Below are positions 26,003 to 56,897 of a stretch of DNA of 64,000 bases, in pieces. The stretch covers positions 608,001-672,000 of the forward strand of contig CAVTRN010000002.1 of the NCBI GenBank assembly GCA_963737155.1, given 5' to 3'. The first letter of the stretch is position 1. Each line of letters opens with the position of its first letter. A program made the position numbers and the translations under genes. A model generated the notes under the pieces. It had not been told where the DNA came from. It did not search any database and saw only the letters and a list, made by a program, of their open reading frames with translations. Origin of the DNA: Nitrospirota bacterium (GTDB lineage Bacteria; Nitrospirota; UBA9217).

Positions 26003-26329
26003 AAAGTCATGACCACCGATAAGGAGCCTTATTCGCCTGACTAAAAAGTCTTTTCATTCCTGACCCGCACAAGCAAGGAGCTGGCAGGTTTATTAAAAAC
26101 CATGTTGCTAATGAGGCTCCACTCATTGTAGTCAGGCCAGAAATCAGGAAGCAACGAATACTACCATTGGTCATGTGTTCCACAATTGTCGGTTATTAAC
26201 TGGCTATGCTATGATCGATATAATTGCTGTACTATAAGACATGATAGACGTAAGAATCAACCGTCGTAAAAGTTATGCATTCTAATCGATTTGTCGAAAG
26301 ATTTGATTCTAAATTTAAAAAGCGGTTAT

Positions 26330-27912
26330 GAGCCTGTTGCTCAAATGCCAGCATAGCCGTTTATGATCGCCCATATGGGATAGTGCCAGACTGCAAATGG
26401 GGTATCTCTGCGAAGCACACGGCATGAATCAGCTGTCGTTTTCGTTCTTTATACTGCCATCTGGGCCGCAATCTCTTTGCCGCTTCGCCAAAGCTTCAAG
26501 AGATTGTGCGTCGCGCAGATGAGTTTCCATTCCTGGGAGCAGGCTTCAATCCCTCGGCGCATGTAGTGCCGGATGCCGCGATTGTCTTTAATCTGGCCAA
26601 AGATCGGTTCGACGGTCTGGCCTCGTTTCTTATAAAGCTCTCTGCCCCGCTTGGTCAGGAGCTTCCTCTCCATCCTCTGCCGGAGTGTCAGGCTTTTTGG
26701 TATCCTCCCTTGGGGCGGGGATGATGCGGCGGCCTCTTTACGTTGCTTCCAGTCTTTCTTGGTTGCGATAAGATGTTCGGGACCGTCGGGAGTGATGGCC
26801 GCAAAGTTCTTCTCACTTGCGTAGCCGGCATCGCTCAGAGATATTTCGATCTTCAGTTCTTTTTGCAGGGCGATCTCGTTTAAGTTCTCCTGGGCCTTCT
26901 GGATCATGGGATGCAGCTGGTTGATGTCGTTTTCCTGGTTCGTGACCTCGGCGGCGATGATGATCTGCTCCTTGGTGACCACGGCCTGGCTGTTGTAGCC
27001 CTGAACATATCCGCTTCGGGTTTTCATGATCCTGCTGTCCGGATCAGTCATATTGGCCTTCGCTTCCGACGATGGCGTCGGATCAGGCTCCTGAGGTTTG
27101 CGGCCCCGTTTCTTGCTGCCGGTTTCAGCCTCTTGGGCCTGTCGTTCTTCGATCTTTGACTGTTGCTCGGCTGCTGCCTCTGCAGCCTGTTCTTCCAACC
27201 GCTTTTTGCACGCGGCAAGGCGGGCTCTGCGGCTGGTTCGGTCGGCAAGTTCATCAGGAAGTTCGTCGCCCCGTTTGTTTTGGCCGTACTGCCGGTCTTC
27301 CTCGGTGTCCTTGGCCTCCGCTTCATCGAGCATCCTCTTCACTTCCTGCTCGATATGTTCGTACGTGCGGTTGGCTTCCAGGGCTGCGTTAGCCTTTATC
27401 TTGCTCTCGTCAAGGGCCACGATGCCGACTTTGACGAGCCCGGCTTCCTTGCAGAGCTTGAGCATCTGTTTGAACAGCCCCTCCAGTGCCTGGCCGTTGT
27501 CCTTCCGAAATCGGCTGATGGTGCAGTGGTCCGGAACTTGGTTGGCGGCAATTACCTTGAATCCGATGTCCCGTTCGCAAAGCTTCTCGATCTCACGGGA
27601 TGATCGGATACCGAGGCTGTAGGCATATAACAGCAGGGAGACCATCATTGACGGCTCAAAAGCTGCCTGGCCTTTTCCGTCCTGACGGTATTTTCGGTAG
27701 AATGCCGTAAGATCCATTTCTGCCACGACGTCAAGGACCATCCAAACAAGGTCCTTGGATGGCAGCCACTCCTGCAAGGTGGGCGGCATGAGATATACTT
27801 GATCTCGGTTACAGTCTTTGAAATTGTAGGCCATCCAGCGTCTCCTTATATGCGTGATGACCAATACTATACTATTCGTATATTAATGTCAAATGATTTA
27901 TGCAACAGGCTC
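26330..27912 (-). mobile_element. IS1182-family insertion sequence, apparently intact
   Basis: IRs GAGCCTGTTGCTCAAAT / GAGCCTGTTGCATAAAT (15/17 match); 4-bp TSD TTAT at 26326-26329 and 27913-27916. Confidence 0.93.
26449..27834 (-). CDS. IS1182 DDE transposase
   Basis: SSREIE, PDHCTISRFR, TDPDSRIMK, GYNSQ, DAGY and VEPIFGQIK motifs. Confidence 0.93.
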   Translation of the reverse strand: MAYNFKDCNRDQVYLMPPTLQEWLPSKDLVWMVLDVVAEMDLTAFYRKYRQDGKGQAAFEPSMMVSLLLYAYSLGIRSSREIEKLCERDIGFKVIAANQVPDHCTISRFRKDNGQALEGLFKQMLKLCKEAGLVKVGIVALDESKIKANAALEANRTYEHIEQEVKRMLDEAEAKDTEEDRQYGQNKRGDELPDELADRTSRRARLAACKKRLEEQAAEAAAEQQSKIEERQAQEAETGSKKRGRKPQEPDPTPSSEAKANMTDPDSRIMKTRSGYVQGYNSQAVVTKEQIIIAAEVTNQENDINQLHPMIQKAQENLNEIALQKELKIEISLSDAGYASEKNFAAITPDGPEHLIATKKDWKQRKEAAASSPPQGRIPKSLTLRQRMERKLLTKRGRELYKKRGQTVEPIFGQIKDNRGIRHYMRRGIEACSQEWKLICATHNLLKLWRSGKEIAAQMAV

Positions 27913-28299
27913 TTATAAGGACCGTATTTCGCTATTTCTGCGCATGTTTTGCAAAAATCGCAATAACCGTTAGAATCGAGACTTAAGGCCTTGGGATAGA
28001 ACGTTGGCTTCGCACAAAGAGGCAGGGCTATGCCTCGCCGCATCCAAACGTTCTTGCTCACTTTATAGCATAGAGCTTACCATCATTCGACGCTATGTAC
28101 ACGGTCCCCTCAGCACCGATCACGGGGGAGGAGTACAAGTTACTTCCTGTTGTATAACTCCACTTGAGCGTGCCATTAGGGTTTATGGCATAGAGCTTAC
28201 CATCATTCGACGCTATGTACACGGTTCCGTCAGCACCGATGGCGGGGGAGGAGTATAAGTTACTTCCTGTTGAATAGCTCCACTTGAGCGTGCCATTAG

Positions 28300-29944
28300 T
28301 AACTAAAGAATCAAAAGCTTCTCAAAATGGGTAGAACAATTTGGTGAATATGCATTAAACATGCGCCAGTTGCGGGATTACAGACATATTTCGGATGGTC
28401 AATCCCGCAGCGATAACAGCCTTGCCGAGTTTTGAAACGTAGTACTTGTATGTTTTGCCGACTTTCCGAATAATGCCGTGGACGTGAAGCCGTTTCAGAA
28501 TTCTCGTCATGGTACTGCTCGTCACGGATGGCAGCTGTTTTCGTAGAGATTTATTCTGAAGTCCGTTGATGTTGAACTCGCCGCGGGCGAGAACCTCGAA
28601 CAGTTTGAGATCATCGTCGCTGAAGAGATTGAAGCCCTTGTAGGAACGGTCGCCTGTTTCCACGGTCTTTGAAATTTTATCAAGGTTATTGATTCCCGCG
28701 CTTTGGTCGTCGAACGTGGAGATGAACTCAAGATAACGGCGGTTCGAGGCCTTGAAGATCGCCGTAAGGTCAAACAGGCTGTAGATGTTCTTCTTCATGG
28801 GTGCGTTCTTGTGGACAGGATCTCCGATCCGCGACTGGACTTCCCGATAGTGCTTGAACTCCGAGACGTCGTTGGTCGTGGTCTCAATCCGGAGGATGCT
28901 GCCGAACTTGTCGTACATCTTGATGGATGAAGCGCCCATATGGTGCTTGATCCGTGTTCCCTGAATTCGGGTGTTGAAGTTGTTGCCCATTTCGCCTTGA
29001 TAATTGCCGTGGAGCTTCCGACCCAGAAAGGTCGCGATATTCTCCGGTTTCACGGAGTGAATGGCGGTTCGAACGATTTGCTCATACAACGTGTGCAGGT
29101 CCGATTGCTTCTTGAAAACGATGTCGGTGGCATATTCCACCTGCATAGTGCTCCAGTGGTAGGTAAGTCCGTACCCGTTACCGACCGGGCAGTATTGTTT
29201 AGCGAATCTGTCCAGTGCATGGTGTAAGTCCGACACCTTGATGCTGTCAGAAAGCTCCTGGGCTTTGGGAAAATTATCGATAGAGAGAAACGCGTTCTCC
29301 CGAAGAACATAGGGGATTTTCTTTTTTGCCAATTTCGCCGCCAGCCAGTTGTGGCCGTTCATATAGAACTGGAGCCGGAACGGTGCCCAGGTGGGAACGC
29401 GGAGGTAGCACAGGCCGAACGTCTTGTCGATGAAGTAGAAGTAATAGTGGAGACACTTTCCGGAATCATACTTGAGAAAGGTCTTGCCGGTGTTTTTGTC
29501 GTGCCAGGGTTTGTAGCTGGTGCAGGCTTCCATGGCCGAGAAGATATGAACAAGGCCGGGTTGCTCGCCACGCGCTTTGATGATTTCTTTGATCCGGGCC
29601 TCTTTACGGAACGCACCCAGCTTGCGGATGAACTCGATCTCAATGCTGTTCTCATTCGCGAGGCCCTCAGCGTTCTCCCGGACTTTTTCCTGAAGCGCTT
29701 TGGCGAACTGGGCATAATCGAAAATCTTGATCTGTCGGGCATAGAGGAATGCCGTCATCCCCTTATCGAAGCACCAGCCGGGCAGCGTGCCCTGCATGAT
29801 CATGCGGTCATAGCAGGATAGTGAACCGGCTATTTTATCTTGGTAGCGTTCAGGAATCATCATAGCAACCTCCATGACTACAATGAGTAGAGCCTTCATT
29901 GTATCATGGTTTTTATAAAACCTCTTGGTTCCGGCTTGTCCGGG
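28300..29944 (-). mobile_element. IR-less insertion element bounded by CTAA, encoding a Rep_trans-like protein
   Basis: TTAG (CTAA on the minus strand) occurs at 28296-28299 and 29945-29948. The rejoined empty site GCCA-TTAG-GGTTTATGGC is identical to the neighbouring intact repeat unit. No terminal IRs. Confidence 0.9.
28355..29863 (-). CDS. Putative Rep_trans-like tyrosine transposase with C-terminal winged HTH (502 aa)
   Basis: QVEYATD / IKMYDK / LRIETT resemble the RxDxAxD / IYxK / RxE motifs of pT181-type Rep_trans proteins. C-terminal wHTH (MTRILKRLHVHGIIRKVGKTYKYYVS). Sole ORF of the element. Confidence 0.7.
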   Translation of the reverse strand: MMIPERYQDKIAGSLSCYDRMIMQGTLPGWCFDKGMTAFLYARQIKIFDYAQFAKALQEKVRENAEGLANENSIEIEFIRKLGAFRKEARIKEIIKARGEQPGLVHIFSAMEACTSYKPWHDKNTGKTFLKYDSGKCLHYYFYFIDKTFGLCYLRVPTWAPFRLQFYMNGHNWLAAKLAKKKIPYVLRENAFLSIDNFPKAQELSDSIKVSDLHHALDRFAKQYCPVGNGYGLTYHWSTMQVEYATDIVFKKQSDLHTLYEQIVRTAIHSVKPENIATFLGRKLHGNYQGEMGNNFNTRIQGTRIKHHMGASSIKMYDKFGSILRIETTTNDVSEFKHYREVQSRIGDPVHKNAPMKKNIYSLFDLTAIFKASNRRYLEFISTFDDQSAGINNLDKISKTVETGDRSYKGFNLFSDDDLKLFEVLARGEFNINGLQNKSLRKQLPSVTSSTMTRILKRLHVHGIIRKVGKTYKYYVSKLGKAVIAAGLTIRNMSVIPQLAHV

Positions 29945-31159
29945 TTAGGGTTTATGGCATGGAGTTTGCCATCATCCGGCGCTATGTAAACGGTTCCATC
30001 AGCACCGATGGCGGGGGAGGAGTATAAGTTGCTTCCAGTTGAATAGCTCCACTTGAGCGTGCCATGGGGGTTTATGGCATAGAGCTTACCATCATTCGAC
30101 ACTATGTACACGGTTCCGTCAGCACCGATGGCGGGGGAGGAGTATAAGTTGCTTTCTGTTGAATAGCTCCACTTGAGCGTGCCATGGGGGTTTATGGCAT
30201 AGAGCTTACCATCATTCGACACTATGTACACGGTTCCATCAGCACCGATGGCGGGGGAGAAGTAAACGTTACTTCCGGCATGGAAGCGACCGAGAGAACT
30301 CACGCCGGTGTCAGCTCCTACGGCGGGGGAGAAGTACGCATTACTTCCAGTTGAATAGCTCCACTTGAGCGTGCCATTCGGGTTAATGGCGTAGAGGTTA
30401 CCATCATTCGACCCTATGTACACGGTCCCATCAGCACCAATGGCGGGGGGGGAGTACAAATACCCTCCTATTGTAAATCTCCACCTGAGACTACCATTGG
30501 GGTTTATGGCATAGAGATTAAAATCATCCGACCCCACGTACACGGTTCCGTCAACACCGATGGTGGGGAAGGATGACACGGGGCTTCCTATTGAGTAGCT
30601 CCACTTGAGTTTGCCATCGGGGTTTATGGCGTCGAGCTTGTTATCCCCCGAACCTACGTACACAGTTCCATCAGCACCGACGGCCGGGGTGGACTCCACG
30701 AAATTTCCAGTTGAATAGCTCCACCTGAGCATGCCTGCCGTAGCACTCGTATCTACTTGGCTTACCCCGGTTAATTGAATATCCCGTTGATGTTCAGGCC
30801 AAGGGCTGGCGCTGGCAACGTTCACGCCGCTCATACCGCTTATCGCGTACGTTGCGTCGCTAACCGCACGGCCCCGAGCTCCAGTAGCAAGTGAGATGGC
30901 GATCAGGATAAAAGGGATCACTTTGCAGAGGGCGGCGCGAAAGTTGTGCACGGATGACCTCCTCTTGCATTGTCCTAAACCTCCGCGCTGTCCTGAACGG
31001 AGGCCAGAATAGGCGTAGTACCGCACCTTATCGTCAGAATGCTTCGCTGTATTCGCGAAAGCGATGAACCTGGCGTTCATAACACTGCTCTTGCAAATTA
31101 TGCTGCTATTGCTCGGGATAAAACTTCGGGGAAAGCGGATCAAACCAACCAGGCACCTC

Positions 31160-55262: not shown

Positions 55263-56897
55263 CCTAAAAAGAGCAGTTACCCTCAATCAGAGCCACTTAT
55301 CCACACCATAACGGCAGAAGTTCAGGCGCCTGCAACGGTTTTCCACCCAGCAGTTTGAAAAATGCACGGCTCAAGATACGTCGCCACCGTTCACCTGGAG
55401 TCAACTGCTCCGCAGTTGTTTTCAGGATGGCTAGAAAGCGGGATATCTCATCGAGAATGCGTTGAACTTTTCCAGAGCTTGCGTGCGCACTCGTGATGGT
55501 CATCATGGTCTGCCCTTGATGGCGTGTTTGTTTGCCAACCGCATGCAGAAGAAGTGGACGACTCGTAATTGCCTCCAAGTGTTTGTCCGGATGAGCAAGC
55601 CTCACGAAGAGCGACCACCAGTTGTAAACTAATGCTACGGTCCGCGCCATGAAGCCGCAGCGCTTAAGGTCCCGGGTCGTATATCCGCCCCACCCCCACT
55701 GATTCTTCAACTCGTCAAAAATATTCTCTGCATCCGCACGATCACGGTAGTGTTGGGCGATTGTGAGAATCTCGTCTTTGAGGGTGGTGGCTAGTACTGC
55801 ATACTCATATCGCTTGGCAACTCCGGGCGCTTCCACAAACCCAAGTTCCATCTGATCCTTCTGCTGCAGGCTTATTGCTACGTCTCCCGTGAGCACTCGT
55901 CGAAGGATAATAACGCGACGAGATTTCTGCCATCCCATGAGTTGAAGGGATTCTTCCACACCCTCCCAGCCCTGTCCGGCATCTACCCAATCGTTACTAT
56001 AGAATGCCTTCTCAATAAGCCTCCGCACGTTCTTCGTGAGGCGTAGCTTCACGAGATAGGGCAATTCTTTTTCTTCTGCCTGACTCATGAAGCCGTCCGT
56101 GCCCCAGCCTGAATCCCCCCGGAAAAAGGCAGGCCAAAAGCGACGCGGGAGTCGTTCCAGAAGCTGCCATAACCCCGGGGTGCTGTAACACGTTGCTGTT
56201 TTGTTTCCGGCCTGCACCTCAACATCCAAAACAAGCCGGGTATTGGCCATCAGGTAACTGTGATAGGTGTGAGACGGCCTGCCGGGCTTATGCGGGTTGT
56301 AACCAATGACCGCGCCCTCTTGTTTTCCGTACAACGGTTTGACTGTCGTATCTCCGTCCATAATCCATGGCATGCACAGGAGGGATTCATAACATCGCCT
56401 CATGTGCTCAGTAAGCCATGAGATGCCGGCATGCTCATCCATCTGCTTAAATCCCCGCCGTACGGTGTCTTCGCTCACGACCTTCGTCATGCCGAGTAGT
56501 GCCGGGTTGACATTATCGCTTCGAACGCTCGTCATGTGGGAATAACGATGGTGACCGGCTAGAACGGACAACAGGACTGTACCGAGAAGATCGCGCTTCT
56601 CGGGTGCGTTAGGACTCGTGTAGTGCAGTGGACAGTCTGCTACCCATGGTTCGTAGATTCCACCCGTCTTCAAAAAATCGATGAAGAACGCCAGCTGGCC
56701 CATTGGCGTAACGGCTGCTGTTGAATCCCATTCAACATGCACTTTTCCTGCAAAGGTATCGACTGCAATTCTATCTGTTTTATCTGTAGGTGGAGATGAA
56801 ATCGAGTCACCCATTGGGTGAGACCTCCTTGTTGAAAGAAGTATCATAGTATCCAATAGTTAACTCAGATTTGCAAGGCCCAACTGCCGTTTATAGG
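55263..56897 (-). mobile_element. IS1380-family insertion sequence, apparently intact
   Basis: IRs CCTAAAAAGAGCAGTT / CCTATAAACGGCAGTT (13/16 match); 5-bp TSD TAAAT at 55258-55262 and 56898-56902. Confidence 0.88.
55297..56814 (-). CDS. IS1380-type DDE transposase
   Basis: MDGDTT, GYNP, RGDSG and YRDRADAENIFDELK motifs; AGGAGGT RBS. Confidence 0.88.
   Translation of the reverse strand: MGDSISSPPTDKTDRIAVDTFAGKVHVEWDSTAAVTPMGQLAFFIDFLKTGGIYEPWVADCPLHYTSPNAPEKRDLLGTVLLSVLAGHHRYSHMTSVRSDNVNPALLGMTKVVSEDTVRRGFKQMDEHAGISWLTEHMRRCYESLLCMPWIMDGDTTVKPLYGKQEGAVIGYNPHKPGRPSHTYHSYLMANTRLVLDVEVQAGNKTATCYSTPGLWQLLERLPRRFWPAFFRGDSGWGTDGFMSQAEEKELPYLVKLRLTKNVRRLIEKAFYSNDWVDAGQGWEGVEESLQLMGWQKSRRVIILRRVLTGDVAISLQQKDQMELGFVEAPGVAKRYEYAVLATTLKDEILTIAQHYRDRADAENIFDELKNQWGWGGYTTRDLKRCGFMARTVALVYNWWSLFVRLAHPDKHLEAITSRPLLLHAVGKQTRHQGQTMMTITSAHASSGKVQRILDEISRFLAILKTTAEQLTPGERWRRILSRAFFKLLGGKPLQAPELLPLWCG

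Follow-up and report, generated by a model that had tools for sequence, protein, structure and literature searches.

Within a stretch of 64,000 nucleotides from a Nitrospirota bacterium (GenBank assembly GCA_963737155.1, contig CAVTRN010000002.1, positions 608,001 to 672,000 of the forward strand; below, the window, with positions counted from its first letter), a gene for a PQQ/BamB-type beta-propeller is interrupted by a 1,645-bp segment that carries a single gene of its own. Which enzyme moves this segment, and where does it cut and rejoin the DNA? The original prediction, made from the sequence, described an autonomous insertion sequence (IS) with a Rep_trans-like tyrosine nickase. We found that the 1,645-bp element is an active, mobile IS. 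Its protein is probably a metal-dependent tyrosine nuclease with a TBP fold, similar to Rep_trans initiators and MOBT relaxases and extended by a C-terminal winged helix, and would nick and rejoin at CT^AA. With somewhat less assurance, we favor the broader view that the element exemplifies a further catalytic class of prokaryotic transposase, in which a TBP-fold, Rep_trans-like tyrosine nuclease serves a very large IS superfamily present in at least 10 bacterial phyla and in an archaeal metagenome-assembled genome (MAG), hidden under the name of "MarR/ArsR regulators," with nicking and rejoining at CT^AA without target duplication and possibly with TAAG as a guide.

The borders of the element were exact. 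On the plus strand, TTAG at 28296-28299 and at 29945-29948 (CTAA on the coding, minus strand) enclosed 1,645 bp (28300-29944), and the sequence across both ends read ...gtgccaTTAG/taactaaag...gtccggg/TTAG/ggtttatggc. Scripted deletion of the 1,645 bp together with one TTAG produced a 20-mer that matches the intact repeat junction at 28170 base for base (the neighboring repeat without insertion reads gtgccaTTAGggtttatggc) and restored a 513-aa stop-to-stop frame across the site. The coordinates and the restored frame were as predicted. The claim that excision recreates the adjacent repeat unit held for the junction, around which the longest centered exact match was 24 nt, but not for the whole unit, which is imperfect. 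As also foreseen, the element lacked terminal inverted repeats, since none of the 10 inverted-repeat pairs found joins its two termini. On the coding strand, the upstream end reads CTAA-C-CCGG-ACAAG-CCGG-AACCAAG and the downstream end TTAG-TTA-CTAA, both as first described. The sole long open reading frame (ORF) of the element, which is also its sole gene (28355-29863, minus strand, 502 aa), contains the segments QVEYATD, IKMYDK, and LRIETT to which the prediction had drawn attention.

Mobility was apparent from the other copies of the element. Its own genome contains seven full-length copies at ~100% identity, each spanning positions 1-1645 with the same boundaries and flanks, an agreement of boundaries far beyond chance. 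The genome search that had been proposed thus returned seven copies with CTAA at both ends: in coding orientation, all of them read c-CTAA/CCCGGACAAGCCGG...TTTAGTTA/CTAA, with C before the left CTAA in 7/7 and T after the right CTAA in 6/7. The family was also multi-copy elsewhere (12 full-length copies in one Lachnospiraceae genome and 7 in one Acidobacteriaceae genome) and patchy among relatives, 4 of 40 of which had a match, comprising three with decayed copies containing stops and one with an intact relative of 59% identity. The homologs are therefore multi-copy and patchily distributed rather than single-copy at conserved loci. Contigs of four public metagenome runs ended at 28295 and 29949, and two of them ran on into other flanks, both at 29949; neither a circle junction nor an empty site was seen in these contigs. 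A clean orthologous empty site, sought in genomes of the same genus for two of the copies, was not found there, the IS and 620 bp next to it both being absent from the relatives at one locus (L001), and the flank being itself a repeat at the other (L006). Gapped copies in two further genomes (G155 and G002, loci L186-L191) look shorter or longer than 1.64 kb and keep the flanks cCTAA...CTAA; the apparent short and long "derivative" elements in G155 and the "interrupted" copy in G002 proved to be scaffold gaps (runs of N) and were rejected as non-autonomous derivatives.

The origin of each base at the junctions was deduced from the distinct flanks of five multi-copy lineages, with boundaries set by copy-to-copy alignment. 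The left junction was CCTAA in 55/55 cases (85/90 left-end contexts overall), and the right junction was CTAA in 44, CTCA in 3, and CTTA in 2 of 49. All five variant right junctions came from one Acidobacteriaceae genome (G157), in which the 7 copies are 100% identical inside and a REP-like sequence harbors four full copies and one partial copy. Eleven unoccupied repeats of this genome read (c)cgct(c/t)-CCT-N-A-CGGTCGCGGTTC, where N was C in eight repeats, T in one, G in two, and A in none; written as CCT(C/T/G)A-CGGTCGCGG, none was CCTAA, and a reversed-pattern control gave 0 matches. Occupied repeats read ...gcgctt-CCT-AA[element]...GGTA-CT-CA-CGGTCGCGGTTC, or in general form ...CCT-AA[IS]CT-(C/T)A-CGGTCGCGG. 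Comparison of occupied with unoccupied repeats shows that the third base differs in origin between the two junctions: the A of the left junction comes from the element, and the C or T of the right junction comes from the target. Two single-copy loci, L054 and L092, have C-CC-AA as left junction and CTAA as right junction, which assigns the first two bases of the left junction to the target and the first two bases of the right junction to the element. By this genetic reasoning, the crossover is at CT^NA, the element is 5'-AA...CT-3', and no target bases are duplicated, so that the "CTAA at both ends" is half target and half element at each junction. The mobile unit, as read from the junctions, is then 5'-AA-C-CCGG...GTTA-CT-3' on the minus strand (28298-29946), two bases off 28300-29944. 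Among the half-sites, CCT was fixed and NA looser. Further right junctions at single-copy loci (CTAT, CTAG, and CTAC), read from the TAAG-N3-4-CT context, are less secure. A left junction TTAA at locus L021 was rejected because the real left end, CCTAA, is further upstream.

The junctions thus agree with the proposal that CTAA is a cleavage-rejoining core and not a target duplication, the right NA coming from the target. A fixed CTAA in other copies was confirmed on the left, without variable 4-bp duplications at the ends, but not on the right, where the five variants occur. According to PMC9371924, MOBT relaxases share a conserved nic site, CT'AA, placed in the loop of a GC-rich hairpin, and the origins of Rep_trans plasmids have the identical site; pT181 carries CCGGCTA-CTCTAA-TAGCCGG. 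The crossover deduced genetically from unoccupied targets falls at this same CT^AA. In the Acidobacteriaceae genome, the element preferentially targets a REP-like motif, (c)cgct(c/t)CCT(C/T/G)ACGGTCGCGGTTC, which often has a complementary arm nearby (loci L137, L150, L152, L154, and L157-L167). As at the element's own left end, a GC-rich stem follows a few bases 3' of the cut.

The ends were conserved across phyla even where the proteins are only 57-60% identical, as C-CTAA-C-CCGG-N5-CCGG-AA at the left and T(A/T)AG-N3-4-CTAA at the right, and a Paraburkholderia plasmid copy of 48% identity had the same ends. In a distant subfamily (20% identical), two copies on a Mycobacterium riyadhense plasmid, 96.6% identical to each other, start with CTAC followed by a long GC-rich inverted repeat and end with ...GCGGCTAG. 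The superfamily as a whole thus retains a CTA at each junction together with a left-end GC palindrome. Across 48 distinct left-end sequences, drawn from many phyla, the CCGG-N5-CCGG motif was kept while its loop varied, and the motif folds; because CCGG is self-complementary, covariation does not distinguish a hairpin from a direct repeat. Next to it, AACC-N5-GG(T) was present in most lineages other than Lachnospiraceae, and AAAAG-TTTTT took its place in Lachnospiraceae. A subterminal hairpin at the right end (TGCC...GGCA) occurred in some lineages only and is not claimed as a feature of the element; the fold of the right end alone was not significant (z = 0.56).

Structure models of the full protein and of residues 1-400 were obtained with AlphaFold2 from a homolog alignment (pLDDT of 94.5 and 95.2, respectively, with a pTM of 0.91 for residues 1-400). 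In the model, a first module consists of a strand (11-26), helices, strands 103-122, 127-146, 150-157, and 164-169, and a helix (170-180), and a second module consists of a strand (236-250), helices, strands 292-299, 302-309, 312-319, and 323-330, two further strands, and a helix (360-381). The order beta-alpha-beta4-alpha therefore occurs twice, as in the TBP-like fold, and is followed by two long helices within residues 1-400; a winged helix (~416-500) closes the model. Rep_trans proteins have been described as a crescent-shaped ten-strand sheet composed of two five-strand modules with TBP connectivity (Carr et al., 2016). The model has this two-module TBP connectivity, in line with the Rep_trans fold of the original prediction, with the caveat that no solved Rep_trans chain was among the PDB matches listed by Foldseek.

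Foldseek comparison of the full model and of the core with the PDB gave nothing at an E value of ≤0.001; among the matches listed, the chain with the top probability outside the winged helix-turn-helix (wHTH) proteins was a TBP (1mp9_B, 0.84 and 0.90). Comparison with BFVD gave 7 matches at E ≤ 0.001, headed by a giant-virus TBP (E = 1.5e-5, probability of 1.00), and including "GST REP [Inoviridae sp.]" (E = 3.9e-4, probability of 1.00, TM of 0.24). The predicted C-terminal wHTH was recovered by weak Pfam matches, by a PDB profile search (MarR at E = 0.0083, wHTH only), and by Foldseek (MarR, ArsR, and HxlR chains at a probability of ~1.0). The same pattern underlies the published link between the archaeal Rep-Arvir proteins and Rep_trans: in PMC13107129, Rep-Arvir matched wHTH proteins only in the PDB, its BFVD matches were viral TBPs and an Inoviridae Rep that bears PF02486, and its catalytic tyrosine and acidic residues were confirmed by mutagenesis. 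A homodimer model (two copies of residues 1-498) scored 0.09 against a mark of 0.42 and is evidence neither way.

The catalytic motifs of Rep_trans proteins were found at equivalent places in this fold. The motifs on which the prediction relied (RxDxAxD, YxK, and RxE), as well as the nick at CT^AA, are confirmed in published work. In RepD, D46 (metal ligand) is on strand 1; R140, D142 (metal), A144, and D146 are on strand 6; T176, Y178, and G180 are on strand 9; R189, Y191 (nucleophile), and K193 are on strand 10; and R212 and E214 (metal) are on strand 11. The IS protein has D19 on its first strand (11-26), equivalent to D46 of RepD. On the first strand of module 2 (236-250), it has Q241-V-E243-Y-A245-T-D247 versus R140xD142xA144xD146; on the third strand, G302-T303-R304; on the fourth (312-319), K315-M-Y317-D-K319 versus R189xY191xK193; and on the fifth (323-330), R325-I-E327 versus R212xE214. 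The order of the motifs, their assignment to strands, and their every-second-residue spacing all match Rep_trans, in a variant form with the conservative replacements Q for R, E for D, and K for R; a pT181 RepC fragment (read from L020) has RLDLAFD, RIYNK, and RVE. In 68 full-length homologs, down to 29% identity, D19, R20, G103, E112, Y141, Y143, G150, P161, N169, N190, E243, F250, Y317, R325, and E327 were invariant, and D247, K315, and K319 were at least 90% conserved. We read the transposase as very distantly related to Rep_trans initiators and MOBT relaxases and, because the sequence definition of PF02486 failed, as a structurally related but separate family that is not filed in that Pfam entry. 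The proposal of an autonomous element with a Rep_trans-like nickase is thus supported by the fold class, by the placement of the motifs, and by a crossover mapped to the Rep_trans nick sequence. A second invariant patch lies in module 1, which has no catalytic residues in Rep_trans (residues 103-169, ~29357-29557 on the minus strand: E112, C137-L-H-Y-Y141-F-Y143-F, G150, R155, and N169); it could be a DNA-binding surface or the site of a second tyrosine.

Several observations weigh against a Rep_trans-like nuclease. PF02486 was matched neither by the query (E ≤ 1) nor by any of the 68 homologs (E ≤ 0.01), hhalign comparison with five Rep_trans proteins (the pT181 RepC fragment and four genome matches) gave a probability of 0.3%, and phmmer and profile searches of the PDB returned no Rep_trans protein, only the MarR wHTH, in addition to the lack of a solved Rep_trans chain among the structural matches. 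The BFVD matches had TM values of 0.24-0.28 with root mean square deviations of 12-19 Å, so that the similarity is local, and the clustering of the motif residues in three dimensions was judged from strand adjacency only, without superposition of coordinates. The nick of Rep_trans proteins is in a hairpin loop, whereas here the crossover is beside a 4-bp CCGG repeat whose pairing is untestable by covariation. Two loci vary at positions assigned to the element (CTAC at the left of L023 and TTAA at the right of L057) and would have to be changes of the element itself. Finally, there was no strict strand bias of the IS608 type, the coding strand being on the G-rich strand in 3/7 copies in the own genome, 4/12 in genome G001, and 0/7 in G157, with a weak skew (0.006-0.05); these numbers are small, and the orientation argues against an obligate lagging-strand-template mechanism such as that of IS608.

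Given the failure of the sequence comparisons, a true IS could instead encode a hydrolytic, metal-dependent transposase on a new scaffold that makes a 2-bp "CT" target duplication at CCT|AA, the tyrosine being structural or DNA binding and the likeness to Rep_trans convergent. The absence of sequence homology to Rep_trans, the invariant acidic residues D19, E112, E243, and E327, which could form a hydrolytic site, and the CT on both sides of nearly every copy, also expected from a 2-bp duplication, would all fit. We nevertheless consider this unlikely, because L054 and L092 have CC at the left half-site and CT at the right, because the element has neither terminal inverted repeats nor an RNase-H-like or other transposase domain, and because five motifs, including KxYxK versus RxYxK, match on equivalent strands and the site has exactly the sequence of the Rep_trans nic site.

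The two remaining explanations concern the role of the protein rather than its chemistry, and we regard both as very improbable. One would make the ORF a DNA-binding regulator or accessory factor and leave movement of the 1.6-kb unit to an external enzyme, for example a recombinase of the host or the nuclease of another element. The source annotation (MarR/ArsR family transcriptional regulator) and the genuine C-terminal wHTH speak for it. Yet the wHTH accounts for ~85 of 502 residues, the other 400 forming a conserved, confidently folded domain with the invariant tyrosine and acidic residues; the ORF is the only gene of the element and travels with the same ends across many phyla, and no PF02486 protein that might act in trans was found in the own genome. 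Integrated remnants of a small rolling-circle plasmid or a filamentous phage, with the protein as a replication initiator and not a transposase, would account for a fold and motif class typical of initiators and for an Inoviridae Rep as the best named Foldseek match besides TBPs. Such an origin is hard to reconcile with the copies found, all of which are chromosomal or on large plasmids and occupy many different sites with ends exact to the base, with a 1,645-bp unit devoid of other plasmid or phage genes, and with the precise interruption of the host gene.

For a Rep_trans-like tyrosine nuclease, we infer tyrosine chemistry, a single-stranded or rolling-circle intermediate, and a role of the wHTH in end recognition, in the following scheme. 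The enzyme would cut one strand at CT^AA at both ends, with D19, E243, and E327 holding the metal and Tyr317 attacking between T and A and becoming linked to the 5' phosphate of A. Two cleavages and strand exchange would rejoin the donor (CT + NA) and circularize the element strand, 5'-AA-C-CCGG...TAAG-NNN-CT-3'; the junction of the circle, CTAA beside CCGG-N5-CCGG, would resemble a plasmid origin. Alternatively, synthesis primed from the 3'-OH of the flank might displace a copy, as in plasmid rolling-circle replication, the donor copy staying in place. Integration would be the reverse reaction at CCT^AA, the element entering between CCT and (A/C/T)A of the target. The wHTH probably reads a subterminal motif, and CCGG-N5-CCGG possibly provides two sites one helical turn apart. 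The conserved TAAG that precedes the right-end CT could, hypothetically, pair with positions 1, 2, and 4 of CTNA as a DNA guide for cleavage, which would explain the free third base.

The element works like IS200/IS605 by function and resembles Rep_trans/MOBT and Rep-Arvir by enzyme. With the Rep_trans initiators (pT181 RepC/RepD and RepSTK1) and MOBT relaxases (NicK, Orf20, and RelSt3) of PF02486, it has in common a two-module TBP-like catalytic domain, with an acidic residue on strand 1 and (R/Q)x(D/E)xAxD, (R/K)xYxK, and RxE on equivalent strands, an added DNA-binding domain of the helix-turn-helix type, and CT^AA beside a GC-rich inverted repeat. It differs from them in the lack of detectable sequence similarity, in a larger protein (core of ~400 aa) without a helix between the tyrosine strand and the RxE strand, in the additional conserved patch of module 1 (E112, Y141, Y143, and R155), in a nick site outside a hairpin loop, and in being a multi-copy IS rather than a plasmid origin or the oriT of an integrative and conjugative element. 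Like IS200/IS605 elements, which are mobilized by the HUH Y1 transposase TnpA ("peel and paste"), it has neither terminal inverted repeats nor target duplication, abuts a fixed short tetra- or pentanucleotide target at its left end, contains small subterminal palindromes, would use a tyrosine nucleophile, and in one lineage targets REP-like palindromes. In contrast to them, the fold is unrelated, there is no HUH motif or match to Y1_Tnp in Pfam or NCBIfam, the protein is ~3 times larger and carries a wHTH, both end sites are the same CT^AA, and no strict replication-strand bias was seen. The Rep-Arvir proteins (DUF7845) of archaeal viruses and plasmids, as presented in PMC13107129, similarly join a TBP-fold nuclease recognizable only by structure to a MarR-like winged helix, but they are replication initiators with the tyrosine motif KHYYM, whereas the present proteins belong to insertion sequences and match no Pfam DUF.

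Transposases are classed by catalytic fold as DDE, DEDD, HUH, and serine and tyrosine recombinases. DDE elements of the IS5, IS1182, and IS701 types make 4-bp YTAR-like target duplications and, like the element studied here, are small, carry a single gene, and are flanked by CTAA-like tetranucleotides. The element differs from them by the lack of a DDE domain and of inverted repeats, and its flanking tetranucleotides are not a duplication since they differ, through target-derived bases, at 5 of the 49 right-junction sites. Neither the protein nor its homologs matched a DDE or RNase-H-like family in a library in which the neighboring gene at 26449-27864 matched DDE_Tnp_1 as a positive control. 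DEDD_Tnp_IS110 and Transposase_20, the hallmarks sought for IS110, were likewise absent from the Pfam and NCBIfam scans. NCBIfam holds models for the ISfinder families, and no transposase match to the element protein was obtained with it, in keeping with the predicted lack of a recognizable DDE, HUH, or other known transposase domain. As for the statement that no standard IS family is built on Rep_trans, no model of a known IS family matched, and the literature covered, which left out most subscription journals and ISfinder, contained no Rep_trans or TBP-fold transposase and no paper with the end sequences of the element. Rep_trans enzymes are known to date from the replication of plasmids and phages and from the relaxases of conjugation. 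A 2017 review treats Rep_trans proteins as initiators and relaxases only, as does the available text of PMC13107129, which in 2026 added archaeal virus initiators to the Rep_trans-type enzymes. If the present assignment is correct, a second family of rolling-circle nucleases would also have been recruited for transposition, in parallel to the HUH enzymes. Thousands of protein clusters now listed as "regulators" or hypothetical would be reannotated, common assembly breaks would be explained, with many 1.6-1.75-kb contigs starting exactly at CCTAACCCGG, and a compact single-protein system would be available for the duplication-free insertion of DNA at a defined 5-nt site.

The size of the family, and the way in which it has escaped notice, emerged from database searches. 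The 502-aa protein matched no Pfam, NCBIfam, or PHROG family above the cutoff. Weak Pfam matches to HVO_A0261_N, HxlR (14.4 bits versus a cutoff of 20.8), and MarR (13.2 bits versus 24.6) were confined to residues 438-485, so that the definition of a MarR/ArsR regulator does not apply to a protein of which the wHTH is a small, below-cutoff part. All 8,000 scored candidates had E ≤ 0.001, and most were on contigs of 1.6-2.5 kb; an exhaustive search, counted as representatives of clusters at 50% identity, gave 7,065 at E ≤ 0.001 and 771 at E ≤ 1e-30. Among GTDB species representatives, at least 490 of 592 candidate stretches were confirmed, in Bacillota, Acidobacteriota, Nitrospirota, Thermodesulfobacteriota, Chloroflexota, Planctomycetota, Spirochaetota, Cloacimonadota, and others, with one match in an ANME-2 archaeal MAG. 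The source names of the candidates were "MarR family transcriptional regulator" or "hypothetical protein," relatives on RefSeq plasmids were labeled "ArsR family transcriptional regulator" or "hypothetical protein," and matches in the ESM Atlas were unnamed "hypothetical protein" clusters only; the anticipated mislabeling as helix-turn-helix regulators was therefore borne out. Many public contigs of 1.64-1.75 kb start at base 1 with CCTAACCCGG (L026, L030, L044, L048, L055, L067, L083, L085, and others), and one such contig carries a coverage of 1619 in its name. Members of the family frequently break assemblies and lead to collapsed repeats.

Table 1. Positions in the window of the insertion sequence, its ends, and its predicted gene product
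Feature	Position	Strand	Basis or comment
Insertion sequence	28300..29944	-	1,645 bp between two CTAA; 7 full-length copies at ~100% identity, same boundaries in all 7
Left (upstream) junction, C-CTAA	29945..29949	-	CCT read as target-derived, AA as the first two bases of the element
Right (downstream) junction, CTAA	28296..28299	-	CT read as the last two bases of the element, AA as target-derived
Right-end motif, TTAG-TTA-CT^AA	28296..28306	-	Family consensus T(A/T)AG-N3-4-CT^AA
CCGG-ACAAG-CCGG	29931..29943	-	One base in from the left junction; possible 4-bp hairpin, or a pair of CCGG sites at a spacing of nine bases
Second small inverted repeat, AACC-AAGA-GGTT	29919..29930	-	Beside CCGG-ACAAG-CCGG
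14-bp imperfect stem-loop in the 5' leader	29872..29909	-	Ends at the ribosome-binding site GGAGG
Putative transposase gene	28355..29863	-	502 aa plus stop; homologs align from residue 1 to ~500
Predicted TBP-like/Rep_trans-like nuclease core, residues 1-400	28664..29863	-	AlphaFold; Foldseek with BFVD
C-terminal winged helix-turn-helix, residues ~416-500	28364..28618	-	Weak Pfam matches; PDB profile; Foldseek
Codon of Tyr317 (KMYDK), proposed catalytic nucleophile	28913..28915	-	Invariant in 68/68 homologs; strand 312-319, position of RepD Y191 on strand 10

The left end and leader of the element (Table 1) are also predicted to be structured. The 111-nt stretch at 29850-29960, which includes the leader stem-loop, folds at -16.4 kcal/mol (z = -3.4), with 0/200 shuffled sequences folding as well, and Lachnospiraceae copies have CCTCC...GGAGG at the position of the leader stem-loop. 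This stem-loop may occlude translation. No match to Rfam and no consensus promoter or terminator were found for the element. A degenerate solo left end of a related element is present in the window at 26040-26134 on the plus strand, where CTGA-CCCGCACAAGC... is followed by a copy of the leader stem-loop at 86% identity and by no ORF, and a similar solo piece is present in the genome at C2:750472-750546.

Repeats were encountered at CTAA sites in two other settings. Exactly at the right end of a family member in a Pseudomonadota MAG (L043:4555-4630), the octamer CTAAGTAC is repeated 9.5 times in perfect tandem, each unit being bounded by CT^AA; the array could be the footprint of repeated nicking and rejoining between two adjacent CTAA sites, or the product of plain slippage. 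A repeat of at least 1.5 kb that ends at TTAG/CTAA occupies 55264-56763 of the window and C2:1021531-1023030 of the genome, among five genome places in all (four other loci at 99% identity). A copy of the IS sits exactly at this TTAG/CTAA terminus of the repeat (C2:1023031), so that the flank of another mobile element served as its target. Lastly, an unrelated DDE transposase gene (26449-27864, minus strand; DUF772 plus DDE_Tnp_1/DDE_Tnp_1_6, IS5/IS1182-like) adjoins the 3' end of the same beta-propeller gene. Thus, this locus has been struck by two different insertion sequences.

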